The notes beneath the pieces are model-generated. The model was not told the DNA's origin, searched no databases, and saw only the letters and a list, made by a program, of their open reading frames with translations. The translations under genes and the position numbers were made by a program. From contig JBBUHH010000064.1 in NCBI GenBank assembly GCA_038055775.1, positions 1 to 36,554 of the forward strand: a stretch of 36,554 bases of DNA. Reading direction: 5' to 3'. The stretch is from Patescibacteria group bacterium (lineage in GTDB: Bacteria; Patescibacteriota; Minisyncoccia; Phycocordibacterales; UBA9973). This document shows positions 3,902 to 34,140 of this stretch, one piece after another (position 1 is the first letter of the stretch; every line of letters starts with the position of its first letter).

Positions 3902-4585
3902 ATGATAGAAGTAAAAAATATCACAAAAATCTACAAGACGGGAGATATGGAATTTCAAGCATTGAATAATGTTTCTTTCACCATAACGGACGGAGAATTT
4001 GTGGCGATTATGGGACCCTCGGGTTCCGGCAAGTCAACGCTGATGCATATTTTAGGGGCGCTAGACAGCCCGACTTCTGGAACTTATCTGCTTGATAGAA
4101 AAGATGTGTCTGTCCTGCCCGATGATGAACTGGCGGATATTCGGCGCAACAAAATCGGTTTCGTATTTCAAGCCTTTAATCTTTTACCGAGAACATCGGT
4201 ACTCAGAAATGTGATGTTGCCTTTAGTTTATGCCGGCGTGCAAGGCGGAAAAAGAATGGAAAAGGCAAAAGAGGCGCTTTTTGCCGCAGGTATGGATGAG
4301 GAACACTTCCACCATATGTCCAATCAAATCTCCGGCGGGCAAATCCAGCGGGTGGCTATCGCGAGAGCGCTAGTAAATAATCCGTCGCTCATTTTGGCCG
4401 ACGAACCGACGGGAAACCTGGATTCTAAAACCGGAGAAATCGTGATGGAAACTTTTCAAAAATTAAACAAAGAATTAAAGCGAACAATCATTTTGATTAC
4501 TCACGAACAAGAAATAGCCGAATACGCCAACAGGATTATTTTTTTAAAAGATGGAAAGCTGGTTGAAGACAGAAAAATAAAATGA
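3902..4585 (+). CDS. ABC transporter ATP-binding protein (MacB/LolD family)
   Basis: Walker [11 protein letters not shown]-loop, signature [14 protein letters not shown], Walker [14 protein letters not shown]-loop THE. Confidence 0.9.
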
Positions 4586-9348: not shown

Positions 9349-9546
9349 ATGACTGGTACAATAAAAAGACTGACTCCGAAAGGTTTCGGATTTATCGTCG
9401 GAGAAGGGCTTACGAAAGATTTATTCTTTCATAGCAACGCTCTTGTCGGCGTAACTTTCGATGAACTCAAGGAAGGTGATGCTGTTTCTTTTGAAACAGA
9501 GGAATCACCAAAAGGATTGAATGCCGTAAATGTGCAGCGCGCATAA
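9349..9546 (+). CDS. cold-shock domain protein (CspA family)
   Basis: 65 aa with RNP1-like KGFGFI and RNP2-like LFFH motifs. Confidence 0.9.
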   Translation: MTGTIKRLTPKGFGFIVGEGLTKDLFFHSNALVGVTFDELKEGDAVSFETEESPKGLNAVNVQRA

Positions 9547-9556
9547 CAATTAAAAT

Positions 9557-9581
9557 AAAAACCCCGTATTACGGGGTTTTT
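9557..9581. terminator. bidirectional intrinsic terminator between csp and the thioredoxin-like gene
   Basis: AAAAACCCCGT-att-ACGGGGTTTTT, flanked by an A-run and a T-run. It overlaps the stop codon of the minus-strand gene. Confidence 0.75.
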
Positions 9582-9837
9582 ATTTTGCCCATTTTTTTAA
9601 TTCTTCATAACTCGCCTCACCGCAAATCCATTTTTTTGTTTTAGTATTATAAAAAAAGGGTACCCCGCCGCATAAGTCTTTGTCGATTTCTAGCAAGCGT
9701 TTTTCATTTTCTTTGTTATGCCAAACTTCCAAACTTTCCACCCTGACTCCTTCCTCTTTTTCCAAACGCTCTACAAGCGCATGCATAGAAACGCAATGCG
9801 GGCATTCGGTTCCATAAAATTCTAAAAGATGGGACAT
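9580..9837 (-). CDS. small thioredoxin/glutaredoxin-like protein (CPHC active site)
   Basis: 85 aa with CPHC near the N-terminus and GGVPFF (cis-Pro loop region). Confidence 0.65.
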   Translation of the reverse strand: MSHLLEFYGTECPHCVSMHALVERLEKEEGVRVESLEVWHNKENEKRLLEIDKDLCGGVPFFYNTKTKKWICGEASYEELKKWAK

Positions 9838-9841
9838 CTTT

Positions 9842-10093
9842 TTACTTAGTTATTCTGGCCAAGCGAGATTTCTTGCGAGCGGCGTTGTTCTTTTTGATGA
9901 CATTACTTTTCGCCGCCTTATCTATTATAGAAAAAGCGCTAGAAAGCATTTTCACAGCTTCCTTCTTGTCCGTCTTAGTAATTTTCTCGATTTTCTTGAT
10001 TATCTCTTTCATTGCCCGCATTTTGCGATCGTTAACAGACTTCTTACGCAAAGATCCCCTGACTGCTTTTTTTGCTGATTGTGTTATTGGCAT
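9842..10093 (-). CDS. rpsT: 30S ribosomal protein S20
   Basis: 83 aa, highly basic. The MPITQSAKKAVRGSLRKK start is typical of bS20. Confidence 0.9.
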   Translation of the reverse strand: MPITQSAKKAVRGSLRKKSVNDRKMRAMKEIIKKIEKITKTDKKEAVKMLSSAFSIIDKAAKSNVIKKNNAARKKSRLARITK

Positions 10094-10125
10094 GAATTTA
10101 ACTTAACAGAAAAATCTCGAAAATG

Positions 10126-10198
10126 CAACCCCTCCTGACCTCCCCTTGTCAGGGGAGGAAGAATTTATGTCTCCCTGATAAGGGGGATTAGGGGGTTG
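10126..10198. repeat. GC-rich nested-palindrome element, two-hairpin form (intergenic copy)
   Basis: Outer inverted ends CAACCCCT...AGGGGGTTG. Hairpins CCTCCCCT-tgtc-AGGGGAGG (10139-10158) and TCTCCC-tgataa-GGGGGA (10170-10187). Lies in the divergent rpsT/ruvA spacer. Confidence 0.8.
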
Positions 10199-10220
10199 AA
10201 TTTTATGTTATGATAAATTC

Positions 10221-10814
10221 ATGATTGGCAGCATAAAGGGAAAGATAATACTGAAAACGGAAAAATTTTTGATAGTTGAGGCGGGAGGAATCGGATATAA
10301 AGTAAGTGTATCTCAGGATACGATTTCTAGACTTGCCCCTCGAAAAAGCTCGGGACAAAATGACACAGTAGTGTCATTTTGGATTCATACCCATGTGCGG
10401 GAGGACGCGCTTGACTTGTATGGGTTTTTGGATAGGGCGGAATTAGAATTTTTCGAAATGCTCATAAACATATCCGGTATCGGACCGAAGGGCGCGCTTG
10501 CCATTTTGGGCGTGGCATCACTCCAGACTTTGCGTAAAGCTATCGGAACCGGTGACATTTCTTACCTCACCAAAATTTCCGGCATCGGCAAAAAAACGGC
10601 GGAAAAAATCGTGATAGAATTGCGAGATAAGATGGAAAAAGCGGCTGGCGAAACGGACGGGGGCTCCATGCAAGGCGAACTCGATGCGCTCGAGGCGCTC
10701 CGGTCGCTCGGCTACTCGCAAAACGAATCTCGCGAGGCGCTGAAAAAAGTTGATGCGGACTTGGACACAAATAAAAAGATTAAGGAGGCATTAAAAATTC
10801 TTGCTACGAAATAA
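10221..10814 (+). CDS. ruvA: Holliday junction branch migration protein RuvA
   Basis: MIGSIKGKI...GGIGYKV OB-fold start, HhH motifs (ISGIGPKGALAIL, ISGIGKKTAEKIV) and a C-terminal domain III. Confidence 0.9.
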   Translation: MIGSIKGKIILKTEKFLIVEAGGIGYKVSVSQDTISRLAPRKSSGQNDTVVSFWIHTHVREDALDLYGFLDRAELEFFEMLINISGIGPKGALAILGVASLQTLRKAIGTGDISYLTKISGIGKKTAEKIVIELRDKMEKAAGETDGGSMQGELDALEALRSLGYSQNESREALKKVDADLDTNKKIKEALKILATK

Positions 10815-10846
10815 AAGGATTATTCGTTAATTCGTATATTTATTTT

Positions 10847-11707
10847 ATGCCGGAACTACCGGAAGTTGAAACAACCACACAAGGATTAAGAAACACTATT
10901 GTCGGGCGCACAATAAAAAATGCCTGGACTGACTTGTCCACTAAGGATAAAAGGCAAAGGGACGCAATCGCGAATCCGAAGTATTTTATTATTTTTAAAA
11001 AAGAAATTCTAAATAAGAAAGTTTTGTCGGTGGAAAGGCGGGCGAAGAATATCCTGATAAATTTAAATAATCAGAAAACGATTTTGGTACATATGAAAAT
11101 GACTGGACACTTACTTTTTGGTGATTATAAAAAAGACCCGATTAACCGCTTTATCCACTTCACGATTAGTTTCAACAACGGCGAAAAATTGTATTTTTCT
11201 GACATGAGAAAATTCGGGAAAATTACCCTGTTGGATACAAAAGTCGCGCATGACACAAAACATCTGAATAACATAGGACCTGAACCCTTGGATAAAAATT
11301 TCACGATCGTGAAATTTAAGGAAGGATTGATGAAAAGAAAAAACGGCAAGATAAAAACAGTCCTCATGGACCAAAGCATCATCGCCGGCATCGGCAATAT
11401 CTATTCCGATGAAATCCTATGGCAGGCAGGCGTAAATCCCGAACGCAAAGTGTCTAGTTTAAAAGAAAAAGAATTAAAACTAATTTTTACCGCAATCAAA
11501 AAAACTCTAGCGAAAGGCATAAACTTCGGCGGAGATTCAATGTCCGACTATCGCAACATCCACGGCCTGCCCGGTAAATTCCAGCTACATCACGAAGCAT
11601 ATAGGCGCACGGGCAAAAAATGCAGAAAAAGAGGATGTAGCGGCACAATAAAAAGAAAAATAATAAACGGCCGTAGCGCGCATTTTTGTAACATACATCA
11701 AATATAG
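10847..11707 (+). CDS. mutM: formamidopyrimidine-DNA glycosylase (Fpg/MutM)
   Basis: N-terminal MPELPEVE catalytic motif, H2TH region, and a C-terminal zinc finger (CRKRGCSGTI...HFC). Confidence 0.9.
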   Translation: MPELPEVETTTQGLRNTIVGRTIKNAWTDLSTKDKRQRDAIANPKYFIIFKKEILNKKVLSVERRAKNILINLNNQKTILVHMKMTGHLLFGDYKKDPINRFIHFTISFNNGEKLYFSDMRKFGKITLLDTKVAHDTKHLNNIGPEPLDKNFTIVKFKEGLMKRKNGKIKTVLMDQSIIAGIGNIYSDEILWQAGVNPERKVSSLKEKELKLIFTAIKKTLAKGINFGGDSMSDYRNIHGLPGKFQLHHEAYRRTGKKCRKRGCSGTIKRKIINGRSAHFCNIHQI

Positions 11708-11820
11708 AAAACGAAATATAAAATTTAGAAAGTCTTGCGCAGGCGGACGCGCCGAGCAGTTCGCTGGGCTAGCAAGCCCAGATAGATTGCTTTATAAATT
11801 TTGATATTTCGTTTTCTATA
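11703..11820. repeat. 118-bp element with 24/25-nt terminal inverted repeats and a GC-rich core
   Basis: TATAGAAAACGAAATATAAAATTT (11703-11726) pairs with AAATTTTGATATTTCGTTTTCTATA (11796-11820), with one bulged nucleotide. The 69-nt core contains the hairpin GGGCT-agca-AGCCC. The arms include the stop codons of both convergent genes. Confidence 0.7.
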
Positions 11821-12292
11821 GACCGTATATTCTAAAAAGTGAAATCCCTAGCGCCACAGAAACATTCAGCGATTCTTTTTTGCCACGCATTGGGATTTCG
11901 GCAATAACATCGCATTTTTTTAGAATACTTTTCGGAATCCCGGCGACTTCGGCGCCGACGATGAAAGCATTCCTCGCTTTCGACCTTATTTTTTTGTAAT
12001 CAACCGAATTTTCATCCTGTTCGATGCCTATAATTAAAAACTTTTCTTTCTTTAATTCAGACAAGAGAGGCAAAATACTTTTCTTTTGCTCCCACGGCAC
12101 AAACTCCTCCGCCCCGAGCGCTGACTTTGCCAAATCTTTTCTTTTTCTGCCAAACCTATCAAGCGGCGCAGGGGTGTACCCCGTCAAATATATTTTATTT
12201 ATCCCAGCCGCATCGGCCGTCCGAAACATCGCGCCCACATTCTGCACGCTCCGGACATTGTGGATTATTAAAATATTCTCTGGCTGTTTCAT
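11816..12292 (-). CDS. SpoU/TrmH-family RNA 2'-O-methyltransferase
   Basis: Motifs NVGAMFRTADAAG, GAEVAGI and LNVSVALGI. The ORF-track TTG start at 12340 would translate the palindromic repeat. ATG 12292 (MKQPENILI...) is preceded by GGAGAGGGG and is preferred. Confidence 0.75.
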   Translation of the reverse strand: MKQPENILIIHNVRSVQNVGAMFRTADAAGINKIYLTGYTPAPLDRFGRKRKDLAKSALGAEEFVPWEQKKSILPLLSELKKEKFLIIGIEQDENSVDYKKIRSKARNAFIVGAEVAGIPKSILKKCDVIAEIPMRGKKESLNVSVALGISLFRIYGL

Positions 12293-12297
12293 AAATT

Positions 12298-12338
12298 CTC
12301 CCCTCTCCGAGATTCGGAGAGGGGCTGGGGGTGAGGTC
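12298..12338. repeat. GC-rich palindromic element, single-hairpin form (udg/trmH junction)
   Basis: Perfect 11-bp stem CCCCTCTCCGA-gat-TCGGAGAGGGG (12300-12324), then the family terminus CTGGGGGTGAGGT ending against the udg stop codon. Confidence 0.75.
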
Positions 12339-12975
12339 AAAAAAGACTTTTTTGCACATCTTCAACTTTTTTCTCTTTCTTGCTCGGCTCTTCCACGACC
12401 TGCTCTTCGGTAATTTCTTCGCCATTAACTTTTTTCAAAGCATCCGGTAATTTTTTAAAAGTATTTTCAAACATATTCATCGCCCCAGTACCTCGGAGTG
12501 CTGCCGCCGGGTGCAACATCGGCAGAATAAAGTGATTTCCCGATTTGAAAAGTTTGCCCTGGTCGCGAGTAATCTTGGCAAATGGCAGAAAATAATTCAT
12601 AGAAAATCTCCCGAGCGGCACTATCATTTTCGGAGCGATGATGTCTATTTGTCGCGCGAGATAAGGCTTGTACGCTTCAATTTCTTCGGGCATTGGGTCG
12701 CGGTTCTCCGGCGGACGGCGCTTCACGATGTTTGTGATGTACACATCGCTCTCCCTCCAGCCGAGGTCGCGGATATTTTTCCGAAGCAACTGCCCTGCTC
12801 GGCCGACAAAAGGCCTCTTCTCGCGATCTTCATTCATTCCCGGCGCTTCACCAATGAAAAGAATCTTGCAATTTGGATCCCCTTCTCCGAAAACGAGGCT
12901 TGACTGCATTAAGGGTAAAGATTTATCCCCTTCTATTTCTTTTTTGAGTTTCTCCAATTCTACGACCTTATCCAT
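12337..12975 (-). CDS. uracil-DNA glycosylase, family 4
   Basis: Motifs GEGDPNCKILFIGEAPG, RPFVGRAGQLL and HPAAALR, with a Lys/Glu-rich C-terminal tail. Confidence 0.85.
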   Translation of the reverse strand: MDKVVELEKLKKEIEGDKSLPLMQSSLVFGEGDPNCKILFIGEAPGMNEDREKRPFVGRAGQLLRKNIRDLGWRESDVYITNIVKRRPPENRDPMPEEIEAYKPYLARQIDIIAPKMIVPLGRFSMNYFLPFAKITRDQGKLFKSGNHFILPMLHPAAALRGTGAMNMFENTFKKLPDALKKVNGEEITEEQVVEEPSKKEKKVEDVQKSLF

Positions 12976-12987
12976 ATATATAGTATA

Positions 12988-14247
12988 TTACTTTAAAAAA
13001 TTTCTTGCCCGTATTTTTTTATGATACGCAATGGCAAACCGGTGCGCTTCGCTATTCCCGAGTAAGATTTCTCTCTTGTATTTAAAGCCAAACTTTTTGT
13101 CGCCCAAGATTGCTTTCGGTTTATGTCGTTCGTCTTTTACAACTGAAACCACCGGAATATCAAGGGTAGCCCTTGATAAAATTGCTTTGACAGCATTAAT
13201 CTGTGCCATCCCCCCATCGACAACTATCAGGTTCGGATAAGTCCATTCCGTGTGAACCAAACGCCTTTCCAATACTTCGGCTAGTGCGCCGGTGTCGTTT
13301 GTATTTAACTGCGTTCTTATTTTAAATTTCTTGTATTCACTTTTCTCCGTCTCTCCATTTTCTACAACAGTCATCACTCCCACCATATTTTTGCCGCCCA
13401 TATGGGCGATGTCGTACGCCTCTATCTTACCCCCTCCGCCTTCGGCACCTCCCCCTACATAGGGGGAGGCTGGGTAGGGGTACTTCATCAGCGCCACATC
13501 ATTTATATGCTGTAAGGCAAAAATCTGCCTTTTAATTTCCCCCGCCCTTTCAAATTCACGATTTTTCGCGTACGCTTTCATTTCTTTTTTAAGATTTTGC
13601 AAAATTCGCTTCTTTTTGCCTTCAAAAAATAATTTTATATTCCTGATATTCTGCAAATATTGTCTCCTCAAGGTCTCTCCTTCTCCGTCGCTTTGCTCCT
13701 CCTTAAGGAAAGACCTTTTCCCGACAATATCCGGCGCCAAATTTATCTGCTTGTAAAATTCTAAATAATTTTTGCTTTTTTCGTCTAGAAACGGAAAAAT
13801 CTTTCGGATAATTTTCATCGCTTCGCGAAGTTGTAGCCCATTTGTAAACGGCCCATACACTTTGTCAAACACCCGATGTTTGACATGGGTGCCGCGAACA
13901 ATCATAACCTTTGGCAAATCCTCGCTCGTGATGCAAACATAATTAAAACTTTTATCGGATTTTTCTTTCGTATTGTATTTCGGCTGATGTTTTTTTATCA
14001 GATTTGCCTCAAGAATTATAGCTTCTAGAACGCTGTCCGTAACCTGCCAATCAATTTTATTCGCCTTGAAAACCATATCTACGAGAAGTGGTCCGCGAGT
14101 TTCAATTAGGTCTTTTGAAAAATAACTTTTAATTCGGTCGCGCAACGATGTTGCCTTGCCTATATATAAAATTTCTTTTCCCTTTAAGAAAAAGTAGACT
14201 CCGGGTTTGTCCGGAAGGTTTTTCTTTTTAAAGTAAGAGATTTGCAT
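12988..14247 (-). CDS. uvrC: excinuclease ABC subunit C, short form without the C-terminal (HhH)2 domain
   Basis: GIY-YIG domain (GVYFFLKGKEILYIGKATSLRDRIKSYF), UVR motif (REFERAGEIKRQIFALQHI) and RNase H-like endonuclease domain (IEAYDIAHMGG...EAHRFAI). The ORF ends at 419 aa directly after that domain. Confidence 0.85.
   Translation of the reverse strand: MQISYFKKKNLPDKPGVYFFLKGKEILYIGKATSLRDRIKSYFSKDLIETRGPLLVDMVFKANKIDWQVTDSVLEAIILEANLIKKHQPKYNTKEKSDKSFNYVCITSEDLPKVMIVRGTHVKHRVFDKVYGPFTNGLQLREAMKIIRKIFPFLDEKSKNYLEFYKQINLAPDIVGKRSFLKEEQSDGEGETLRRQYLQNIRNIKLFFEGKKKRILQNLKKEMKAYAKNREFERAGEIKRQIFALQHINDVALMKYPYPASPYVGGGAEGGGGKIEAYDIAHMGGKNMVGVMTVVENGETEKSEYKKFKIRTQLNTNDTGALAEVLERRLVHTEWTYPNLIVVDGGMAQINAVKAILSRATLDIPVVSVVKDERHKPKAILGDKKFGFKYKREILLGNSEAHRFAIAYHKKIRARNFLK
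13428..13482. repeat. GC-rich palindromic element inside uvrC (in frame)
   Basis: Hairpin CCTCCCCCT-acat-AGGGGGAGG (13448-13469), a CCGCCTTCGGCA module, and TACCCC...GGGGTA ends. Translated as YPYPASPYVGGGAEGGGGK. It is the reverse complement of the uvrB copies. Confidence 0.8.
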
Positions 14248-14248
14248 A

Positions 14249-16906
14249 CTATTTTTTTAACGCCTTTTTCAAATATTTCCCAGTATGACTTTTTGCATTA
14301 TTCGCCACTTCTTCTGGGATGCCTTTGGCTACTAGATTCCCCCCTTTTACTCCTCCTTCGGGACCGATGTCTATAATATAATCCGAACTTTTGACAATAT
14401 CCATATTGTGCTCTATCAAGACTACTGTGTGACCTTTAGTGACAAGTTTATTTAAAACCTCCAAAAGCTTTTGCACATCATCGTAATGTAACCCCACCGT
14501 AGGCTCATCTAGAAGATAAATTGTTTTCTCAAAATGCGGACGGAAGAGCTCGCTGCTAATTTTCACGCGCTGCGCTTCTCCGCCGGAGAGTGTCGTCGCC
14601 GACTGACCAAGCTCCAAGTACCCCAACCCAACATCCATCAAAGTTTGCAGTCTGTCGGCAATCTCTGGAATGTCTTTAAAAAATTGGAGTCCGTCTTCTA
14701 CGGTCATATGCAAAATTTCATGGATATTTTTTTTCTTGTATTTCACCGTCAGCGTTTCTTTATCAAAACGCTTGCCGTTGCACACATCGCAAGTGACATA
14801 AACCGTCGGCAAAAAATGCATTTCTACGGCAATTTCGCCGTTGCCCTCGCAAGCCTCGCACCGGCCGCCTTTCACATTGAAAGAAAAACGATTGGCTTTC
14901 CAACCGCGCAGGCGGGCTTCTTCGGTTGAAGCAAAAAGGTCGCGGATATGAGTAAATGCTCCCGTATATGTCGCCAAGTTCGAGCGCGGTGTACGGCCGA
15001 TGGGCGACTGGTCAATGAGAATCGCCCGTGAGAGGTATTCCGTGCCAGAAAAAGAAGAGCAATTGAAAACCTGCGCGGAACGATATTTTCTTTCATATCG
15101 CGCCTGAAGATTTTTATACAAAATTTCATACATAAAGGAGCTTTTGCCTGACCCGGAAACTCCGGTGATGGAAGTCATCACTCCAAGCGGAACTTCCACA
15201 TTCATATTGTTGATATTAAAAATTTTTCCGCCAGATATCCGAATCGCCCCTTTTCCAACTCTGCGCTTTTTAGGAACTTCTATTTTTAACTCATTTCGTA
15301 TATAACCAAGAGTTCTGGATTTATTCGTATTTTTCCCAGCAGTCAATAATTCATCTAAAAACCCGGAGGCAATCACTTCTCCGCCATGTACTCCAGCTTT
15401 TGGTCCTATATCCACTATGTAGTCCGAAGCATAAATTGTATCTTCATCATGCTCGACAATGAGGATCGTATTTCCTAAATCACGCAAGTTTTGCAAAGTT
15501 TTTATCAGTCTGTCATTGTCTCTCTGATGCAAACCGATAGTCGGCTCATCTAAAACATAGAGTGCGCCGACAAGTCTAGAGCCGAGCTGAGAAGCCAAGC
15601 GAATACGCTGGGCTTCTCCGCCAGAGAGAGTGTTCGCCTTGCGGGAAAGTTGTAAATAATCTAAGCCGACATCGAGCATAAATTCTAATCGCGCTTCGAT
15701 TTCGCGGACAACTGGCAGAGAAATTTCTTTTTCTTGTTCGGAAAGCTTTAGATTTTTGAAAAATTCATGAGCATCGGCGATAGATAAAGAAGCAAGATCT
15801 AAAATATTTACACGCCTATCCACCTCATCCCCCGCCTTCCCCTGAAAGGGGAAGGGGCTTCCCCCTCTCCTTTCAGGAGAGGGTTGGGGCGAGGTTAAAA
15901 AAACATTCAGCGCCTCTGGGCGAAGTCGCGCGCCCTTGCAGGCATCGCAAGGCTCATCGCCCATAAAATATTTTGAGCCGAGACCGTTGCAAGAAGGACA
16001 AGCGCCATATGGAGAATTGAAAGAAAAAAGGCGCGGTTCAATCTCCGGAAAGGAAAAACCGTCGTTCTTGCAAGCAAACTTGGCGGACATAATAAATTCT
16101 TCATCACTTATTTTAATTGTCACTAGTCCATCAGACTCAATTAGCGCGCGTTCTAAAGCTTCCGAAAGTCTTGTGCGGCTTGCTTCTTTGTTGTCCGCAA
16201 ACTCATGCACTGCAAAATGGTCGACCAATATATCTATATTGTGTGCCTTATTTTTCGAAAGAGTAATCTGTTCGCGCAATTTCTTCATCACGCCGTCGAG
16301 CCGGATTTCGGTAAAACCTTTGCCTAGTAAATCATACAGCAACTGGTAGTATTCCCCTTTTCGTCCGCGCACAATCGGAGAAAAAATGCTAACCTCCGTG
16401 CCAAGGACCGCCTTTGACATTTTTGGGCTCATGTCAAGGGCAGTCCTTGGCACTTTATTTATTTTCTCTAAAACAAAATTCAAAATTTCTTCATTGGAAA
16501 GTTTTTTGATTTCTTCGTCGCACAAGGGGCAATGCGGGTGTCCGATGCGTGCATACATTACACGCAAATAATCATAAATTTCTGTAATCGTGGCAACAGT
16601 AGAACGCGGATTGTTGGAGCGGGATTTTTGGTCAATGGAAATAGCCGGAGAAAGACCGGTAATCTCGTCCACATCCGGCTTGGGCATCTGGTTCAAAAAC
16701 TGCCGCGCGTAAGAAGAGAGCGACTCCACATACCGCCTCTGCCCTTCGGCAAAAATAGTGTCAAAAGCGAGTGAGGATTTACCGCTCCCCGAGACGCCAG
16801 TAATTACCACCATTTTATTGCGTGGCATTTCCACTGTGATATTTTTTAGGTTATGAGTTCTAGCCCCCTTAACCACTATTTTCTCCTGAAAATCTTTTTT
16901 GGTCAT
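14249..16906 (-). CDS. uvrA: excinuclease ABC subunit A
   Basis: Two ABC cassettes (GVSGSGKSS twice, [12 protein letters not shown] and [12 protein letters not shown]), zinc-finger cysteine clusters, and an N-terminal [11 protein letters not shown]. The stop is 1 nt from the uvrC start. Confidence 0.95.
15822..15895. repeat. GC-rich nested-palindrome element, two-hairpin form, inside uvrA (in frame)
   Basis: Outer ACCTCATCCCC...GGGGCGAGGT. Hairpins CCTTCCCC-tgaaa-GGGGAAGG (15835-15855) and CCCTCTCC-tttca-GGAGAGGG (15863-15883). Translated as [25 protein letters not shown]. Confidence 0.85.
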
Positions 16907-17000
16907 AAACGCAACGACACCCGCATATATTCATAGGGGGTGTATATCAATTATTAAACTCGGTTTAGTATAACAGAAAAAATTAAAAAGTCTCTTTTTC

Positions 17001-17267
17001 TTATTTAACCACCAATTTCAAACCAAGACCACTTGTGATTTTTTGAATAAATGAAAGAGTGGGATTTGTATTGCCAGTTTCAAAACGAGCAAGAGCTGAT
17101 TGAGTTACACCAATCTTTTTCGCCAGCTTCCTCTGAGACATACCTTTTTGAGCGCGAGCTAAGGCAAGTTTACGAATGATTGCAAACTTTGGTTGCATTT
17201 CATCATAAATTTTTCTTGCGCCAGGTCTTTTAAATAATTCTCTTTTAAGATCTGCTAATGTTTTCAT
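17001..17267 (-). CDS. higA: XRE-family HTH antitoxin (HigA-like)
   Basis: 88 aa with HTH MSQRKLAKKIGVTQSALARFETG. It lies directly downstream of a Gp49/HigB-like toxin gene. Confidence 0.7.
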   Translation of the reverse strand: MKTLADLKRELFKRPGARKIYDEMQPKFAIIRKLALARAQKGMSQRKLAKKIGVTQSALARFETGNTNPTLSFIQKITSGLGLKLVVK

Positions 17268-17275
17268 ACTATGAT

Positions 17276-17293
17276 GATATCATATATGATATC
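17276..17293. promoter_or_regulatory. perfect 18-bp palindrome between the toxin and antitoxin genes
   Basis: GATATCATATATGATATC fills most of the 26-nt toxin/antitoxin spacer. Candidate operator or internal promoter element. Confidence 0.4.
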
Positions 17294-17605
17294 TTATGGC
17301 AAGTACTTTAGTCTGTAAGTAGCTTTTTCTAAATCTTTTATTGGTATTTTTTGAGTTTTCTTAATAAACCCATGCAATATGTATATTTCATCCTTGTGGA
17401 AAGTGCACAAAATTCTCACAGATATTTTGCCCACAATTCTTAATTCATAAATTTTTTTATTTATTTTCTTTAACTTAGGTGGTCCAAGATGTACTCCAAA
17501 CTCATCAAGAATTTCTAATAACCCGAAAATTTTAAAAGCCAAATTATTATCAAGAGATTTTATAAACTCGTATGTGTCATCTCGTAAAAATTTCACTCTG
17601 TTCAT
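17294..17605 (-). CDS. higB: RelE/ParE-superfamily toxin, phage Gp49/HigB-like
   Basis: 103 aa. The pattern KKIYELRIVGKISVRILCTFHKDEIYILHGFIKKTQKIP matches the Gp49-type l-y-E-l-R...R-i-l-y...gf-KK-x3-P signature. The toxin-first gene order is typical of HigBA. Confidence 0.7.
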   Translation of the reverse strand: MNRVKFLRDDTYEFIKSLDNNLAFKIFGLLEILDEFGVHLGPPKLKKINKKIYELRIVGKISVRILCTFHKDEIYILHGFIKKTQKIPIKDLEKATYRLKYLP

Positions 17606-17688
17606 AGTTACTTAAAGTTTATCACAAAATTTCCTCCGCGTTTGAGAAATTATTAGCATATTTTCCCCTTTCTGTATATAATAAGCAA

Positions 17689-18051
17689 ATGAGTGAAAGT
17701 GCTCCAAACCCAAAAACCGGTGCGGATACTATCCGCGAAAAAGTTGAGTCAGCCCTTAAAGAAGCTGGGTTGGAGGAGGCATTGCAAGTCATCACGCGAC
17801 TCGAACAAGAAGTAAAGACTATGACTATGCCTGAAAGATTTAGCGGCACAAATATAGCTTCCAATCGTCCTTATACAGTCTCTGGTGAACCAGTAACCCA
17901 AGAAGGTTTAACAGAAGCAGAATTCAAAAGAAGAGAACTGTTGGCTGATTTGGGCGCGCTGAAGAAGAAAATTGAAGAAGCGAAACAAGGTCTAGTAGAT
18001 GTAACTACAGATATTGCAGCGACAGGACTTCCAGGAGGTTGGTTAACATAA
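17689..18051 (+). CDS. hypothetical protein (Glu/Lys-rich, predicted helical)
   Basis: 120-aa ORF with TATAAT (17677-17682) 6 nt upstream of the ATG, followed by the hairpin CGTTAGG-tcttg-CCTAACG and a copy of the 40-bp repeat. No family recognised. Confidence 0.45.
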   Translation: MSESAPNPKTGADTIREKVESALKEAGLEEALQVITRLEQEVKTMTMPERFSGTNIASNRPYTVSGEPVTQEGLTEAEFKRRELLADLGALKKKIEEAKQGLVDVTTDIAATGLPGGWLT

Positions 18052-18082
18052 GATTCGCGTTAGGTCTTGCCTAACGAAGTTG

Positions 18083-18122
18083 AATTTAGCATTAGCCCGC
18101 GACCGCTGCTTATTGCTATTTT
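18083..18122. repeat. TTTAGCATTAG...TTATTGCTA structured repeat, copy A
   Basis: AATTTAGCATTAGCCCGCGACCGCTGCTTATTGCTATTTTA lies between the convergent ends of the orphan gene and uvrB, followed by a T-run. Confidence 0.7.
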
Positions 18123-18829
18123 ATTTTTCTACCCGGGTTTTCAGCACCCCGATTTCTTCCCTTAATATCGCTGCGGATTCGAAGTCGAGTTCTTTGACGG
18201 CTTTGTTCATTTCTTTTTCTTTTAATTTTATTATTTCCGCAATGGATTTACCAAACACTTTGAAATCCAAAGCGAGTTTCGCATTGACTGCTTTCGCATG
18301 CTCGCTTTCTAACTCTTCGGTAATATCTTTTATCTTTTTTGAAATTGTCTTCGGAGTAATACCGTGCTTTTTATTGTAAGCAAGCTGAATGTTCCTGCGG
18401 CGGGCAGTTTCTTTGAGCGCAGAATTCATCGCGTCAGTCATTATGTCTGCATAAAGAATGACTTTGCCTTCGGCGTTGCGCGCCGCGCGGCCGATAGTCT
18501 GAATGAGTGAAGTTTATGAACGCAAAAATCCAGCTTTATCGGCATCTAAAATGCCAATGAGCGCGACTTCCGGTAAATCTAAACCTTCTCTCAAAAGATT
18601 GACACCAACCAAAACATCAAACCCGCCTTTCCTGAATTGCGTAAGAATTTTTATGCGCTCCATCGTCTTGATATCGCTATGCAAATATTCTGCTTTTATT
18701 TTCTTTTCTTTTAAATAAACAGAAAGATCTTCCGCCATTCTTTTGGTGAGGGTGGTGGCTAATACCCGAAAGCCTCGCGTGATGGTTTTTTCTGTTTCAG
18801 TTATAAAGTCTTGGATTTGACCAGGATAC

Positions 18830-18887
18830 ACCTCACCCCCGTCCCCTCTCCTTGACAAGGAGGGGGGTGCCGAAGGCGGGGTGAGGT
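18830..18887. repeat. GC-rich palindromic element inside uvrB (in frame), copy 1
   Basis: Outer ACCTCACCCC...GGGGTGAGGT, central hairpin CCCCTCTCCTTG-a-CAAGGAGGGGGG, and module TGCCGAAGGCGG. Translated as TPPSAPPSLSRRGDGGEVY. Confidence 0.85.
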
Positions 18888-19209
18888 CTGCGCTAACTCC
18901 TCGCACAACAGTCTCCGGATCAACAAGCCCAGTTGGGCGAATAATTTGCTCAACTACCTGTTCGCTTTCTTTTCTTTCCTGTTCGCCCGGGGTTGCGCTT
19001 GTATAAATTACCTGCCCGATACATTTCTGAAATTCCTCATATTTAAGCGGTCGGTTGTCTTTCGCCGAATGCAGGCGGAAGCCATATTCCACAAGTGTAT
19101 TTTTGCGCGAAGCGTCCCCCGCGTACATGCCTTGAAGCTGAGGCAAGGTCACATGAGATTCGTCAACTATAGTAAGAAAATCTAGTATCAGACTTTCTTT
19201 TCCATCTTG

Positions 19210-19252
19210 CCTCCCCCTTGATAAGGGGGAGGTGCCAGAGGCGGAGGGGGTA
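19210..19252. repeat. GC-rich palindromic element inside uvrB (in frame), copy 2
   Basis: Perfect 10-bp stem CCTCCCCCTT-gat-AAGGGGGAGG (19210-19232), then TGCCAGAGGCGGAGGGGGTA. Translated as PSASGTSPLSRGRQDGK. Confidence 0.85.
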
Positions 19253-20237
19253 TGCGGAAAATACGAAAGCAATGTCTCCGGCGGTTCGCCTTCTTTTTTG
19301 CCGGAGAGATGTCTTGAATAATTCTCAATACCGTTGCAATAGCCGATTTCTTTAATCATAGCTAGGTCATAATTCGTTCGGCGTTTGATTCTCTCTGCTT
19401 CTAGTAATTTTTTTTCTTTTTTGAATTTCTTCAATTGCGCCGCTAATTCTCCTTTTATCAAAACCAACGCTTTTTTCTTTTTTACATCTTCGGTAATAAA
19501 ATGTTTTGCCGGAAAAATAAAAATACTTTTTTCATCTTTTATGATATGCGCAGAAATTGGATTAACTTTTATTATTTTAGAAATCACTCCGTTCTCTATT
19601 TCAATTTGGTACATAATAGTTTCTGAAACAGGTATAAGTTCCACTCTAGAACCCAGAGAACGGAAAGTTCCGGGAATCAAATCCGCGTTGGTGCGTTCAA
19701 AATGTATAGCAACAAGAGACTTCATCAAAACCATGCGATCCATTTTCTGCCCGACTTCAAGTTTCAGATTAACTTTTTCATATTCTTCGGGACTGCCCAA
19801 TCCGTAAATGCAAGACACAGAAGCGACGATGATAACATCCGGTCTGGTCAAAAGCGCCTGCGTGGAAGCGTGGCGCAACATGTCTATTTCTTTGTTTATG
19901 GAAGCGTCTTTTTCAATGTAAGTGTCCGAAGCGGGCATGTACGCTTCCGGCTGATAATAATCATAGTAAGAAACAAAATAATGCACGGCCACCTCGGGGA
20001 AAAATGTTTTGAACTCCTGCGCCAGCTGAGCGGCAAGAGTTTTGTTGTGCGCAATTACTAAGGTTGGCTTGTTATACTGCGCGATAACATTCGCTATCGT
20101 AAAAGTCTTGCCCGTCCCCGTAGCGCCTAGAAGCGTCTGTCTTTTCATCCCCATCCTTAAGCCTGATATCAATTTTGAAACAGCCTCCGGCTGGTCCCCC
20201 GCCAGAAGCCAGGGCTGATGTAACTTGAAAATAGACT

Positions 20238-20384
20238 TCATCTACTTAACATACCATCCAAAGTCAATTCGTCAACACCGCCTTCAAAGGAATCGTAAGC
20301 CCTTACTACAATATAATAGGCTATGGCAGAAGTTACTATCGTAAAAATGAGAAAATTTACTAGCGTTAAATTAATCCTGTGCAT
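20238..20384 (-). CDS. candidate 48-aa single-TM small protein, translationally coupled to uvrB
   Basis: Not in the ORF track because it is under 60 aa. It reads MHRINLTLVNFLIFTIVTSAIAYYIVVRAYDSFEGGVDELTLDGMLSR. Its TGA stop overlaps the uvrB ATG (ATGA). Extended -10 TGaTAAACT lies 7 nt upstream of its ATG. Confidence 0.3.
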   Translation of the reverse strand: MHRINLTLVNFLIFTIVTSAIAYYIVVRAYDSFEGGVDELTLDGMLSR

Positions 20385-20398
20385 AGTTAATAGTTTAT

Positions 20399-20410
20399 CA
20401 CAATATTGTG
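20399..20410. promoter_or_regulatory. perfect 12-bp palindrome overlapping the putative uvrB-operon promoter
   Basis: CACAATATTGTG. On the minus strand its last two bases are the TG of the extended -10 TGaTAAACT (20392-20400). Confidence 0.35.
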
Positions 20411-20473
20411 GTCAGGAATAGTTTTCTGCTGGAAACTTTCCCGACCCAGACTCGCGCCGTCGCACTCCGTTTC

Positions 20474-20498
20474 GCACAAAACACCCCGTGTTTTGTGC
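20474..20498 (-). terminator. 11-bp-stem hairpin immediately 3' of tRNA-Lys
   Basis: GCACAAAACAC-ccc-GTGTTTTGTGC overlaps the last 3 nt of the tRNA. No clear U-tract follows on the minus strand, so it may be a processing or termination structure. Confidence 0.35.
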
Positions 20499-20568
20499 GC
20501 CCGCTCGGGATCGAACCGAGGACCTTATCCTTAAAAGGGATCTGCTCTACCGACTGAGCTACGGGCGC
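20496..20568 (-). tRNA. tRNA-Lys (anticodon TTT)
   Basis: Reverse complement: GCGCCCG-TA-GCTC-AGTCGGTA-GAGC-A-GATCC-CTTTTAA-GGATA-AGGTC-CTCGG-TTCGATC-CCGAG-CGGGCGC-A. Confidence 0.9.
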
Positions 20569-24173: not shown

Positions 24174-25874
24174 ATGCCAAATACTTTTGACGAAGAAAAA
24201 CAAAATAAGCGGCTGGAAGATTTGCGCAAACAGGAGGAGGAGCAATTGGTAGCAAGTTTGGCGGAATCCAAATATGGTCTTCCTTACATTGACCTCTATC
24301 GTCTAGGCATAGACAATGAAGCGCTCCGGGCAATATCGCATGAAGACGCAAAAAAAATGAAAGTTGCGCCCTTCAAACTTTTCGGAAAAAATATTTTTAT
24401 AGCTGTTCGCTCACCTTCAGATGATCTTTTTAAAACACTAAAGGATTTAATGGAAAGACATAATTTATTACCTACTTTTTATATGGCCTCTAACGCCAGT
24501 CTAAATAAGGTTTGGGATAGATATAAGGAACTTTCCATGGCGGAAAGTTCGCAAGTGGGAGGCATAGATATATCCGGAGAAGTTTTAAGGGATACGGCAA
24601 AAAAAATCGAGCATTTGCAGGACATTGAAAAATTGGTTGTGGAAGCGTTGGAAGGGAATAAAATCCACAAAATTTCCCATTTGTTGGAAATAATCCTAGC
24701 AGGCGCAATTGCCATTAAGGCTTCGGATATACATATAGAACCGGAAAAGGACAGGGGGCGGTTAAGACTGAGGTTGGATGGCGTGCTACAAGACATAAAT
24801 TTTTTCGGATTGGATATATACCGCCTGCTTAATTCGCGTATCAAACTTCTTTCCGGTATGAAATTAACTTCAACCATCGCGCAAGACGGGCGTTTTAATA
24901 TTGCGGAAGGGGCGGAAGAAATAAGTATTCGTTCCTCGCTTATTCCCGGCGCTTACGGCGAATCGATTGTCATGCGTATACTGGACCCGAAAGCCATCCA
25001 AGTGGCTATTGAAGAATTGGGCATTGAACCTTATTTATTTGAAATTGTTAAAACTGAAATTGTAAAACCTAATGGACTAATTTTAGTTACCGGACCGACG
25101 GGTTCCGGAAAAACTACCACTCTTTACGCATTTTTGCGAAAAATATATTCAACCGAAATAAATGTAATAACCATTGAGGACCCAGTTGAATATCACTTAG
25201 TTGGCATCACTCAAACACAGATCAATATTGAAAGAGGATATACTTTCCCGGAAGGATTGCGTTCCGCGCTTCGGCAAGACCCGGATGTAATCATGGTCGG
25301 GGAAATCCGCGACGGAGATACGGCAGAAATTTCCGTACAGTCGTCTTTAACGGGCCACATGGTCTTTTCAACCCTACATACCAATAACGCCGCGGGAGTC
25401 ATTCCTCGTCTGATTGACCTTGGAGTCAATCCGAAGATTTTAGTTTCAGCTCTTTCTCTTTCGCTGGCCCAGCGACTGGTCCGCCGGCTCTGCCAATTCT
25501 GTCGAAAAGAATCCGAAGCGACTACCGAAGAGGCAAAGACTGTCCAGTTGGTTCTTGACAGCATCAAACAGGAAGGAAAAAATTTCATGAATTACAACAT
25601 CAAAGCCGAGCCTCCTTTCAAAATTTTCTCTCCGGTCGGATGCGAAAAATGCAATAAAATCGGCTATAAGGGACGAATCGGCATCTTCGAAGCGATTAAA
25701 ACCGACGAAGCGATAGAAAAAATAATTCCGGAAAACCCAAGCGAACACGAAATCAAAAAAGTGGCGCATAACCAGGGCATCCTCTCCATGCGCCAGGATG
25801 GCATTGTTAAAATCCTAAACGGCATCACCTCCATAGAAGAAGTCCAAAGCGTGGTGGATTTGAAGGAGGAGTAA
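24174..25874 (+). CDS. type II secretion / type IV pilus assembly ATPase (GspE/PilB family)
   Basis: N-terminal GspE_N-like region, Walker A GPTGSGKTTT, Asp box, Walker B DVIMVGEIRD, His box GHMVFSTLHTN, and a tetracysteine motif (CQFC...CEKC). Confidence 0.85.
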   Translation: MPNTFDEEKQNKRLEDLRKQEEEQLVASLAESKYGLPYIDLYRLGIDNEALRAISHEDAKKMKVAPFKLFGKNIFIAVRSPSDDLFKTLKDLMERHNLLPTFYMASNASLNKVWDRYKELSMAESSQVGGIDISGEVLRDTAKKIEHLQDIEKLVVEALEGNKIHKISHLLEIILAGAIAIKASDIHIEPEKDRGRLRLRLDGVLQDINFFGLDIYRLLNSRIKLLSGMKLTSTIAQDGRFNIAEGAEEISIRSSLIPGAYGESIVMRILDPKAIQVAIEELGIEPYLFEIVKTEIVKPNGLILVTGPTGSGKTTTLYAFLRKIYSTEINVITIEDPVEYHLVGITQTQINIERGYTFPEGLRSALRQDPDVIMVGEIRDGDTAEISVQSSLTGHMVFSTLHTNNAAGVIPRLIDLGVNPKILVSALSLSLAQRLVRRLCQFCRKESEATTEEAKTVQLVLDSIKQEGKNFMNYNIKAEPPFKIFSPVGCEKCNKIGYKGRIGIFEAIKTDEAIEKIIPENPSEHEIKKVAHNQGILSMRQDGIVKILNGITSIEEVQSVVDLKEE

Positions 25875-25895
25875 AAATTATGAGAGAGTGGTAAG

Positions 25896-25909
25896 GCAAG
25901 ATCTCACAA
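25896..25909. repeat. left arm of a 14-bp perfect inverted repeat bracketing the 81-aa gene
   Basis: GCAAGATCTCACAA is the reverse complement of 26226-26239. Confidence 0.7.
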
Positions 25910-25933
25910 TCCTACAATACCTCTTATTTCTTT

Positions 25934-26179
25934 TCACTTAATCTCAAGGAGAAGTTTGTAGAGTTTTTCTTTTTCTTCATTGTAGATTTTTAAATCCTCT
26001 TCTTGCCATCCAATTCTTTTTGCTAAAACCACTATATTATCCATAACTCCTAGACAATTTATTAATGCATGAATATTCGCACCGGTAGATTTGGTATCTA
26101 TGATTACGCGAAGTTGGTCAACATCTTCTTCGGTTGGGCACACTAAACGAGATGGAGTATTTTCCGCAGACTCATTCAT
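25934..26179 (-). CDS. hypothetical 81-aa protein
   Basis: ORF with a plausible promoter on the minus strand (TTGCAT, 17 nt, TAGTAT). AT-rich. No family recognised. Confidence 0.4.
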   Translation of the reverse strand: MNESAENTPSRLVCPTEEDVDQLRVIIDTKSTGANIHALINCLGVMDNIVVLAKRIGWQEEDLKIYNEEKEKLYKLLLEIK

Positions 26180-26210
26180 AGATAGATACTATCACTAATT
26201 GGGTTACAAT

Positions 26211-26254
26211 GCAAAAATTGTGAGGTTGTGAGATCTTGCTTCACAATTTTTTTG
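26211..26254. repeat. 13-bp-stem hairpin whose loop carries the right arm of the 14-bp inverted repeat
   Basis: GCAAAAATTGTGA ... TCACAATTTTTTGC. The loop contains TTGTGAGATCTTGC (26226-26239). Confidence 0.6.
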
Positions 26255-26256
26255 CA

Positions 26257-26297
26257 AAATTTAGCATTAGTACGCCATGACATACTATTGCTAAATT
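26257..26297. repeat. TTTAGCATTAG...TTATTGCTA structured repeat, copy B (likely dapF terminator)
   Basis: AAATTTAGCATTAGTACGCCATGACATACTATTGCTAAATT. Stem ATTTAGCA/TGCTAAAT plus TAGTA/TACTA. On the minus strand it follows the dapF stop and is followed by TTTT. Confidence 0.7.
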
Positions 26298-26312
26298 GGT
26301 GCCTTAATTCAA

Positions 26313-33465: not shown

Positions 33466-33500
33466 AATTTAGCATTAGTACGCGACCGCTTATTAATGAT
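33466..33500. repeat. TTTAGCATTAG... structured repeat, copy C (left half only)
   Basis: AATTTAGCATTAGTACGCGACCGCTTATTAATGAT. The right arm is replaced by the promoter of the next gene. Confidence 0.65.
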
Positions 33501-33511
33501 ATAATAAACTA

Positions 33512-34082: not shown

Positions 34083-34120
34083 GTTTAGCATTAGTGAGCG
34101 ACCGCTTGTTATTGCTAAAA
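34083..34120. repeat. TTTAGCATTAG...TTATTGCTA structured repeat, copy D
   Basis: GTTTAGCATTAGTGAGCGACCGCTTGTTATTGCTAAAA, stem TTTAGCA/TGCTAAA. Lies between the convergent ends of the PaaX-like gene and lysA. Confidence 0.7.
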
Positions 34121-34140
34121 TAGGTTCTGCGTATGCATAG

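Follow-up and report, generated by a model that had tools for sequence, protein, structure and literature searches.

In-frame GC-rich palindromic mini-elements in uvrA, uvrB and uvrC of a Patescibacteria bacterium and their association with DUF559 endonuclease genes

We analyzed a 36,554-nucleotide stretch of DNA from a Patescibacteria group bacterium (contig JBBUHH010000064.1), hereafter called the window, and found six copies of a short GC-rich nested-palindrome element, four of which are located in frame in the repair genes uvrA, uvrB (twice) and uvrC. The elements have a common anatomy, occupy sites that are empty in some relatives, and are dispersed over unrelated genes and phyla; they are members of a cross-phylum family that is linked to genes for DUF559 endonucleases. 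We consider it probable (about 0.7) that these elements are selfish palindromes of a non-autonomous kind, related to a cross-phylum DUF559 unit but shorter, and that they are moved in trans by DUF559.

All six elements listed in the initial annotation were present at the coordinates given there (Table 1). They had been described as GC-rich islands in an AT-rich window; the islands were clear, and the window, at 40.6% GC overall, is just moderately AT-rich. A scan for perfect, GC-rich hairpins (stem of at least 7, loop of 3-9), with 30 Markov shuffles as the null, revealed eight hairpins in the window versus a shuffle mean of 1.3. Seven were found inside five of the six elements and the eighth (11764-11781) was outside, while the copy at 18830 contained an imperfect hairpin only. 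Additionally, the terminus GGGGRTGAGGT occurred four times in the window versus 0.35 expected. Full copies consisted of 10-11 nt inverted termini (ACCTCAYCCCC ... GGGGRTGAGGT) around two hairpins, of which one was long and C-rich and the other shorter. Single-strand DNA folds of the copies at 10126, 13428, 15822 and 18830 revealed an outer stem and two hairpins (z -2.8 to -4.7); the copies at 12298 and 19210 lacked the left terminus and contained the hairpin(s) and one terminus alone. The elements were 41-75 nt long and the inserts comprised 17-25 codons. An Rfam scan of 9500-20500 showed no match on the elements and no intron or ribozyme match.

The individual copies combined these components in different ways. 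Copy 1 contained the perfect hairpin CCTCCCC-TTGTCA-GGGGAGG (10139-10158) and a weaker hairpin, TCCC-TGATAA-GGGG, in a three-way DNA fold of -18.1 kcal/mol (z -3.3). Copy 2, which had been placed at the udg/trmH junction, fills the spacer there and is open in the trmH frame, being read as (M)TSPPAPLRISERGEF from the called TTG start at 12340; it thus lies inside the called open reading frame (ORF) and figures in the annotation as an N-terminal extension of 16 aa. Since TrmH comprises 157-162 aa in relatives and 174 aa as called here, the ATG at 12293 is the likelier start. Copy 3 contained a tail' module, the mini-hairpin GCC-TTC-GGC, the hairpin CCTCCCCC-TACATA-GGGGGAGG and the tail-like CTGGGTAGGGGTA. 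It was inverted relative to the uvrB copies and, as had been noticed from the sequence, it was the reverse complement of the uvrB site-1 copy (13428-13456 versus 19224-19252; 29 nt, 93% complementary). The two hairpins of copy 4 were CCTTCCCC-TGAAA-GGGGAAGG and CCCTCTCC-TTTCA-GGAGAGGG, with a fold of -25.2 kcal/mol (z -4.3). Copy 5 had the termini ACCTCACCCC/GGGGTGAGGT, the hairpin CCCCTCTCC-TTGACAA-GGAGGGGGG and the mini-hairpin GCC-GAA-GGC (fold -21.8 kcal/mol, z -4.7). The GC-rich part of copy 6, of the right-end type, contained the hairpin CCTCCCCC-TTGATAA-GGGGGAGG, the mini-hairpin GCC-AGA-GGC and the tail GAGGGGGTA; these 43 nt (19210-19252) had been identified correctly, and the whole insert was found to extend over 69 nt (19183-19251). 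The original list of six had overlooked a further palindromic insert in uvrC, which is probably a seventh in-frame insert of a different family; it folded with -10.3 kcal/mol (z -3.3) and was missing from the relatives L091-L094.

Table 1. Palindromic elements of the window, with positions counted from its first letter.
Element	Position	Strand	Description
Copy 1	10126..10198	.	rpsT/ruvA spacer, intergenic; outer stem CAACCCCT/AGGGGGTTG
Copy 2	12298..12338	+	Right-end type, udg stop/trmH start spacer; hairpin CCCCTCTCCGA-GAT-TCGGAGAGGGG, tail CTGGGGGTGAGGT
Copy 3	13426..13482	-	In uvrC; peptide YPYPASPYVGGGAEGGGGK; linker before RNase H-like endonuclease domain
Seventh insert (probable)	13664..13725	-	In uvrC, in frame; other, AT-richer family; peptide VGKRSFLKEEQSDGEGETLRR, 13-bp stem AAGGTCTTTCCTT/AAGGAGAGACCTT
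Copy 4	15821..15895	-	Complete two-hairpin mini-element in uvrA; 25 codons; termini ACCTCATCCCC/GGGGCGAGGT
Copy 5	18830..18887	-	Complete mini-element in uvrB site 2; read (L)TPPSAPPSLSRRGDGGEV; just before conserved (Y)PGQIQ block
Copy 6	19183..19251	-	Within uvrB site-1 insert; 23 codons, peptide TPSASGTSPLSRGRQDGKESLIL; located five residues before helicase motif II (DESH)

The four intragenic GC-rich copies were all open in the host frame, as had been claimed. To delimit the insertions, UvrA, UvrB and UvrC were aligned to solved chains by phmmer. UvrB contained 23 extra residues after YFP(D/H) and 16 extra residues before (K)GQI, and residues 337-366 of UvrA faced four residues in chain 9gxk_A. 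The insertion points of UvrA and UvrB thus mapped between conserved blocks of the solved structures, whereas the alignment of UvrC to solved RNase H-like endonuclease domains began at residue 274, directly past the insert, so that the proposed insertion between contiguous blocks held for the former two proteins. An AlphaFold2 model of UvrB built from a 26-sequence alignment had a mean pLDDT (predicted local distance difference test score) of 52.6, with the inserts as low-confidence coil, and was too poor for use; the loop placement therefore relies on the alignments to solved structures. Together with the comparison to relatives, these alignments place the inserts at predicted loops or linkers, and uvrB site 2 presumably corresponds to the linker between both helicase domains.

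UvrB homologues at 72-81% identity carry the names Candidatus Nomurabacteria, Paceibacterota or Parcubacteria, which indicated that the host is a bacterium of the candidate phyla radiation (CPR)/Patescibacteria. Alignment with such relatives delimited the insertions and revealed that the same sites are empty in some of them. The uvrA site was empty in L091, L092 and L094 and was filled by the uvrA-type element in the window and L093; uvrB site 1 was empty in L091 (YFPKT-GFL) and L094, and uvrB site 2 in L092 and L094 (PVSEKNSYK type). At the copy-3 position of uvrC, all five relatives compared carried an insert of some kind, and several families were represented. The insert ends were sharp (A/ACCTCACCCC ... 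GAGGT/, the slash marking the boundary), and no target-site duplication was found in filled/empty comparisons at five sites. The net gain at filled sites was +17 to +22 codons, below the element length, which indicated that a few host codons were lost on insertion. Further copies were found in relatives: L093 carries the uvrA-type element in uvrA, twice in uvrB and in the GIY-YIG part of uvrC, the last of which was missing from all other compared genomes, and contains at least six in-frame, stop-free copies in total.

The peptides themselves were absent from distant orthologues, an outcome on which the initial annotation had made its reading depend. An exhaustive HMMER search with the 31-aa uvrA insert gave two matches at E<=0.001, a small number because the query is too short; one was the unrelated metagenome protein P0123, which carries the uvrA-type element with 92% identity over 26 aa. 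A word-indexed protein search with the doubled insert peptide returned two candidates and missed known UvrB carriers, and was uninformative on spread. Among the 120 closest UvrB homologues, site 1 was basal (1-2 aa) in 40 of 118 and held 14 aa or more in approximately 43, whereas site 2 was basal (9 aa) in 60 of 112 and held 18 aa or more in approximately 48. At least six unrelated insert families occurred at these two sites, several of them at both; the single-family view taken at the outset had overlooked these other palindrome families in the same UvrB loops of the clade. One family, ..EYTRRHSHSVLEGQ.LSGRSEDSSEYIP, recurred at both sites (P0015, P0023, P0042, P0058 and other homologues). 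Its peptide itself resembles a palindrome (EYTRR ... SSEYI), which hints at a further family of protein-coding palindromes.

It is of negligible probability that the GC-rich segments arose by chimeric assembly or from contamination. Two short-read contigs (L004 and L006) break off within the uvrA copy (window position 15851), as would be anticipated of a repeat, and the L002 assembly is a chimera of strains approximately 40 nt past the uvrA element. In contrast, an identical UvrC, insert included, was encoded by at least 13 contigs of separate samples, assemblers and ENA, Logan and NCBI assemblies. The contigs L001-L010 showed 99-100% identity to the window across the elements, with L001 and L002 carrying the uvrA and uvrB copies unchanged; independent assemblies thus reproduce the inserts. 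The window sequence is contained in contig CAYHXZ010000001.1 of the metagenome-assembled genome GCA_964360725.1, which stems from Hainich groundwater (wells H51/H52), and related genomes of other sites bear homologous inserts at the same codons. A candidate empty rpsT/ruvA site in L216 was rejected, as a scaffold gap of Ns is located there.

As evident from the comparison with relatives, the DNA of the elements has been conserved better than its surroundings, a feature that had previously escaped notice. The elements were 85-96% identical between the window and relatives, while flanking codons were 67-78% identical; in particular, the GC-rich 48 nt of uvrB site 1 were 96% identical to L092, versus 77-78% for the flanking codons. 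We also observed that the uvrC hairpin (window 13448-13469, L092 16420-16441) had an identical stem and a reverse-complemented loop (coding strand TATGTA versus TACATA), with the neighbouring modules keeping their orientation in both. The DNA-level conservation and this loop flip of a perfect palindrome agree better with palindromes that are homogenised or copied anew than with a peptide loop that drifts.

To describe the wider distribution of the element, we defined a module, CCCCTCTCC-loop-GGAGAGGGG-NN-GGGGTGAGGT, and scanned JGI metagenomes with the pattern ACCTCRCCCCN{1,5}CCCTCTCC, which specifies the left terminus and left arm only. The pattern was present in at least 120 contigs with GC contents of 0.31-0.71, and in most of the 84 inspected matches a short loop was followed by the right arm GGAGAGGG, which the pattern does not specify. 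Complete mini-elements with the second small hairpin and a GGGGTGAGGT end recurred (e.g., L097, L141, L147, L154 and L173). On low-GC contigs, 11 of 39 matches lay within long stop-free frames, and leuS-, metH- and helicase/restriction-subunit-like genes were among the host ORFs recognized by eye. A blastn search of plasmids with a 58-nt element gave four weak matches (Thiothrix, Brasilonema, Cupriavidus and Hymenobacter); the two that were inspected, from Thiothrix and Hymenobacter, were located in unannotated spacers. The behaviour had been thought undescribed for this type of genome; the module itself proved not to be specific to a genome type, as it is cross-phylum and associated with DUF559. 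A full-text search on motif strings returned unrelated primer sequences only.

At seven of the motif-selected loci, among at least 120 listed, the adjoining ORF matched PF04480 (DUF559; E 1e-25 to 1e-37). In L123, inverted copies of the module at 3951-3972 (plus) and 4364-4385 (minus) bracket such an ORF (E 2e-37), and the entire 435-bp DUF559 unit (3951-4385) is located in frame within metH. Inverted copies also bracket a DUF559 ORF in L211 (approximately 65% GC). A truncated DUF559 with two hairpin modules was found in frame in leuS (L108, 3-355), where the contig end cuts the unit, and one flank of a DUF559 unit was visible in each of L110, L165, L179 and L150. A partial unit was also present within an annotated 1621-aa coding sequence of a cyanobacterial plasmid (L221; NZ_CP112876.1, 151946-156811). 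The DUF559 units matched PF04480 and, weakly, related restriction-endonuclease-type families. No Hint or other splicing domain was found in the units and no Hint domain in the window inserts; L123, L108 and L221 are endonuclease-domain insertions without an intein or intron. Module-DUF559 ORF-inverted module units (L123, L211 and L222) share the termini of the mini-elements. The L211 unit has at its right terminus the same 10-bp stem and 13-nt tail as window copy 2, the loop alone being different.

A converse test was performed with eight DUF559 genes from PLSDB plasmids, chosen by tblastn protein similarity alone. The genes originated from Picosynechococcus, Pseudanabaena (two), Synechocystis, Deinococcus, Sinorhizobium, Sphingomonas and Neisseria, and thus from Cyanobacteriota, Deinococcota and Alpha-/Betaproteobacteria. 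All eight were located among C-rich hairpins with G-rich tails, and seven had perfect pyrimidine-arm hairpins at a distance of 200 nt or less. The density of pyrimidine-arm hairpins near these genes was 6.1 per kb, which is in sharp contrast to 0.0097 per kb in controls (approximately 630-fold). No DUF559 was found in a control set of 1.35 Mb of uvrB loci, mostly from distant taxa, listed by the pattern YYDYYQPE. The hairpin variant around DUF559 differed by lineage, each lineage having its own. A fuzzy hairpin-plus-tail consensus of the recurrent module was used instead of a MAFFT covariance alignment, in which the left arms of the DUF559-flanking modules were misaligned because loop lengths vary. 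This consensus matched five of the six window copies and had no match in 100 shuffles; the sole unmatched copy was that at 10126. Five of six window copies therefore fit the family as defined in this analysis, a C-rich pyrimidine-arm hairpin followed by a G-rich GGGGTGAGG-type tail.

DUF559 is abundant in Nomurabacteria and Paceibacterota, and in the CPR relatives L092 and L227-L230 the conserved slot between ruvB and the T2SSE ATPase gene holds a DUF559 gene. The flanks of this gene carry CCTCCCC-TGCGAA-GGGGAGG, a second hairpin and GAGGGGTGA, and this order and stem are those of window copies 1, 3 and 6. In L092, a cassette of two genes, for DUF559 and a 247-aa protein without a Pfam match, lies between two palindrome clusters of approximately 110-120 nt (2184-2294 and 3417-3535), in each of which several short hairpins are grouped about a central stem; the second cluster folded with -42.6 kcal/mol (z -9.7). 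Homology of this 247-aa gene to the window gene in the same slot was considered and rejected.

According to the reading that we favor, the six elements and the seventh of another family would be non-autonomous selfish palindromes, of which the truncated copies keep the hairpin(s) and one terminus. The copies now seen in uvrA, uvrB and uvrC would be survivors that kept the frame and landed between conserved blocks, and they are probably transcribed and translated through as Pro/Ser/Gly/Arg-rich stretches. The parent unit would comprise the hairpin-plus-tail module, a DUF559 (Vsr-like PD-(D/E)XK) endonuclease ORF and an inverted module. By analogy with REPIN-RAYT systems, in which RAYT (REP-associated tyrosine) transposases have been proposed to act on REPINs, the inverted doublets of repetitive extragenic palindromic (REP) sequences (PMC3116915), a DUF559 nuclease encoded elsewhere in the genome may act on the mini-elements in trans and mobilise them, so that the mini-elements would depend on the nuclease. 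As target-site duplications were not found and host codons were lost, break-and-repair or template-switch copying would fit the insertions better than cut-and-paste transposition.

Several points weigh against this reading. No DUF559 was found in the 36.5-kb window and the 10 kb beyond its start (46.5 kb), and the T2SSE-ruvB slot of the window contains an unrelated 81-aa ORF. DUF559 adjoins just seven of the at least 120 motif-selected loci, although mostly ORF-less copies are what a non-autonomous family predicts. Part of the motif used in that search came from the window and its relatives, so the motif-selected sample lacks independence where the left half of the module is concerned. In L123, L211, L222 and L223 the tails are directed outward, in L092, L219 and L220 inward, and such varying orientation is untidy for a simple terminal-inverted-repeat transposon. 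The association gives no direction, as DUF559 could home into pre-existing palindromes, and the hairpins around DUF559 could also be its expression or termination signals. All copies in the window are located in one 9.1-kb stretch, where local gene conversion rather than genome-wide mobility could be responsible.

Four rival explanations were graded lower because of the counter-points noted against each; the assembly chimera is dealt with above. The dependence might be reversed, with palindromes spreading without DUF559 by slippage, template switching or gene conversion and DUF559 homing into them. A DUF559 ORF between complete two-hairpin mini-elements in L221 and L225, the absence of target-site duplications at sites where a few codons were replaced, and the uvrC loop flip between the window and L092, a template-switch signature, are consistent with this possibility, and Vsr-like nucleases are known as homing endonucleases (PMC3239194, PMC2677866, PMC3424549). 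We nevertheless consider it unlikely, as DUF559 is flanked by each lineage's own hairpin variant, which suggests REP/RAYT-like co-diversification, and the CPR gene is found at one conserved syntenic slot and not scattered among palindromes. It is slightly less probable still that the palindromes benefit the host, as structures for uvr expression, protein-binding sites or adaptive surface loops, and were spread by selection. The clustering of six to seven copies in 9.1 kb of repair genes, together with their absence from the remaining 37 kb of the contig, would agree with such a role, as would the better conservation of the element DNA and the fact that uvr genes were struck repeatedly in relatives too. 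However, the sites are empty in many close relatives with intact proteins (the basal UvrB sites counted above), unrelated palindrome families fill the same loops, both orientations are tolerated, truncated copies exist, and the module is also present in unrelated genes, spacers and phyla of 31-71% GC.

The inserts might also be present in the DNA but not in the protein, owing to ribosome bypass or mRNA excision; precedents for bypass are the GC-rich 'byp' elements of Magnusiomyces mitochondria and T4 gene 60. The inserts are indeed stable GC-rich hairpins in the coding sequence of a lower-GC genome, and their DNA conservation exceeds what a peptide would need. In contrast, every intragenic copy examined was in frame and stop-free (four GC-rich copies and one other in the window, at least six in L093), a constraint that counts against bypass and excision because neither would impose it; ten independent copies would all be in frame with a chance of approximately (1/3)^10 by frame alone. 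As matched take-off and landing codons were not evident at the insert ends, and no Rfam family, intron or ribozyme was matched, we regard this explanation as very improbable. Inteins and introns were rejected as candidates, since no splicing domains or RNA families were present, as were CRISPR or tandem arrays, because the copies are dispersed, and terminators, because four copies are located inside ORFs.

We compared the elements with known systems of small repeats. To our knowledge, no partner gene is known for Rickettsia palindromic elements (RPEs). The analogy to RPEs drawn in the initial annotation held for behaviour (selfish, in frame, in either orientation) and failed for family membership. 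RPEs are likewise short palindromic selfish repeats that lie in frame in unrelated ORFs and add a fold-compatible peptide, with several families per lineage in small-genome bacteria (PMC10969869). However, they are approximately 150 bp long (families of about 100-150 bp) and occur in Rickettsia and relatives (PMC10969869), whereas the elements described here, 41-75 nt long and GC-rich with 10-11 nt inverted termini and two internal hairpins, occur in a CPR host. The elements had no Rfam or other match, RPEs being set apart by their described size and host, and the core module here is cross-phylum and associated with a DUF559 nuclease gene. Full-text literature searches, with subscription-only papers outside their reach, found nothing tying CPR/Patescibacteria to RPE-like or in-frame palindromic elements and nothing tying DUF559 to repeats or mobility.

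REPs and REPINs are also short GC-rich palindromes dispersed as singlets and inverted doublets (PMC3116915, PMC3733652); comparable singlets (12298, 19210) and doublet-like full copies (15822, 18830) were found in the window, and doublets in L092. A usually single-copy gene flanked by matching palindrome clusters, with a variant per lineage, is a further shared feature (PMC3116915, PMC3733652), and the syntenic CPR DUF559 gene between palindrome doublets mirrors the RAYT layout. One difference is the flanked gene, which here encodes a PF04480 PD-(D/E)XK nuclease and not an HUH Y1 (IS200-like) transposase. The conserved tag is GGGGTGAGGT here and GTAG or CGTC in REPs. REPs are extragenic by definition, while four of six window copies (five of seven with the uvrC insert of the other family) are intragenic, and even the nuclease-bearing unit can form an in-frame part of a host gene (metH in L123; partially leuS in L108, and L221).

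[quoted passage not shown] Terminal inverted repeats are ACCTCAYCCCC/GGGGRTGAGGT in the 15822 and 18830 copies and CAACCCCT/AGGGGGTTG at 10126. Those MITEs derive from insertion sequence transposases and usually have target-site duplications, whereas the window elements lack a duplication and are much smaller, and the candidate autonomous form here comprises approximately 435-485 bp with a DUF559 domain of approximately 100 aa, which is no known transposase and has a predicted role only. DUF559 has been grouped with Vsr and the homing endonuclease I-Bth0305I in the PD-(D/E)XK superfamily (PMC3424549, PMC3239194). Vsr-like (EDxHD) homing endonucleases, including I-Bth0305I and those of 'fractured genes', therefore share the nuclease fold group (PMC3424549) and provide a precedent for selfish mobility and host-gene residence (PMC3239194, PMC2677866). 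They are borne by group I introns or lie between split inteins, and home to a single cognate site; in contrast, the DUF559 units have palindromic termini, no intron or intein, ORF-less derivatives and many sites. Yeast mitochondrial GC clusters and the small dispersed repeats (SDR) of Nostoc are tiny GC-rich or hairpin repeats that spread in lower-GC genomes, also into conserved genes, by a mechanism unlike transposition. Their hosts and sequences are different, and they are not known to be associated with a nuclease gene; the Nostoc SDR are mentioned in PMC3116915.

These results extend in-frame palindrome colonisation, which has been treated as nearly peculiar to Rickettsia, to a free-living-environment CPR lineage with ultra-small genomes, in which three subunits of one repair machine were struck. 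Palindromes of at least six families fill the two UvrB loops in some 40% of the 120 nearest homologues, and they are a concrete, testable source of the lineage-specific insertions and length variation in CPR proteins. They are also a warning for annotation and assembly, as contigs break in these repeats and one start codon was called inside a copy. DUF559 is a large family annotated only as 'endonuclease domain-containing' or 'very-short-patch-repair', without an assigned role. In Cyanobacteriota, Deinococcota, Proteobacteria and CPR, we found it surrounded by hairpin repeats that match, in some cases in frame in housekeeping genes, and this link offers a direct hypothesis for the role of DUF559 and for the spread of widespread short GC-rich hairpin repeats. 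On a bolder view, which we put forward tentatively and with some doubt, DUF559 endonucleases would be the partner enzymes of pan-bacterial mini-elements with hairpins and would make up another system of the REPIN-RAYT type, based on a different nuclease fold, with nuclease-bearing forms of approximately 450 bp and ORF-less forms of 40-75 nt in frame in essential genes, and the surface loops of CPR core proteins, including UvrA, UvrB and UvrC, would be remodelled at large scale.

The gene order of the window is polA, PEMT, a hypothetical gene, uvrB, toxin-antitoxin-like genes, uvrA, uvrC, udg, trmH, fpg, ruvA and rpsT, and the polA-to-rpsT order is kept in the relatives L091-L094. UvrA of the window (uvrA, 14249-16906) and of its relatives comprises 846-885 aa and lacks a segment of approximately 115 residues matching residues 306-420 of chain 9gxk_A, which we take to be the insertion domain of canonical UvrA. 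The window uvrB contains an in-frame TAA (18514-18516) at the conserved Glu of helicase motif VI; L001 and L002 have GAA, which indicated a window-specific single-base difference. The window also differs from nearly all other assemblies covering positions 14582 and 14804, and at 19070 from L001 and L002, the sole two assemblies reaching there.

A 47-nt inverted repeat (70% complementary) was observed around the 81-aa ORF that separates the T2SSE gene from a dapF-like gene adjoining ruvB (25872-26263). A 39-nt intergenic repeat, TTTAGCATTAGT..GCGACCGC.., was present in four copies with 72-100% identity (18085-18123, 26260-26298, 33468-33506 and 34084-34122); it has no relation to the GC-rich hairpins and may serve in regulation or be a small repeat of another kind. 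Immediately upstream of window position 1, a 340-aa ORF adjoining ruvX (L215, 8874-9896) showed a faint LAGLIDADG_3 match and may be a homing-endonuclease-like gene. The relative richest in copies of the uvrA-type element, L093, carries a 257-aa reverse-transcriptase (RVT_1) ORF upstream of polA (1125-1898).

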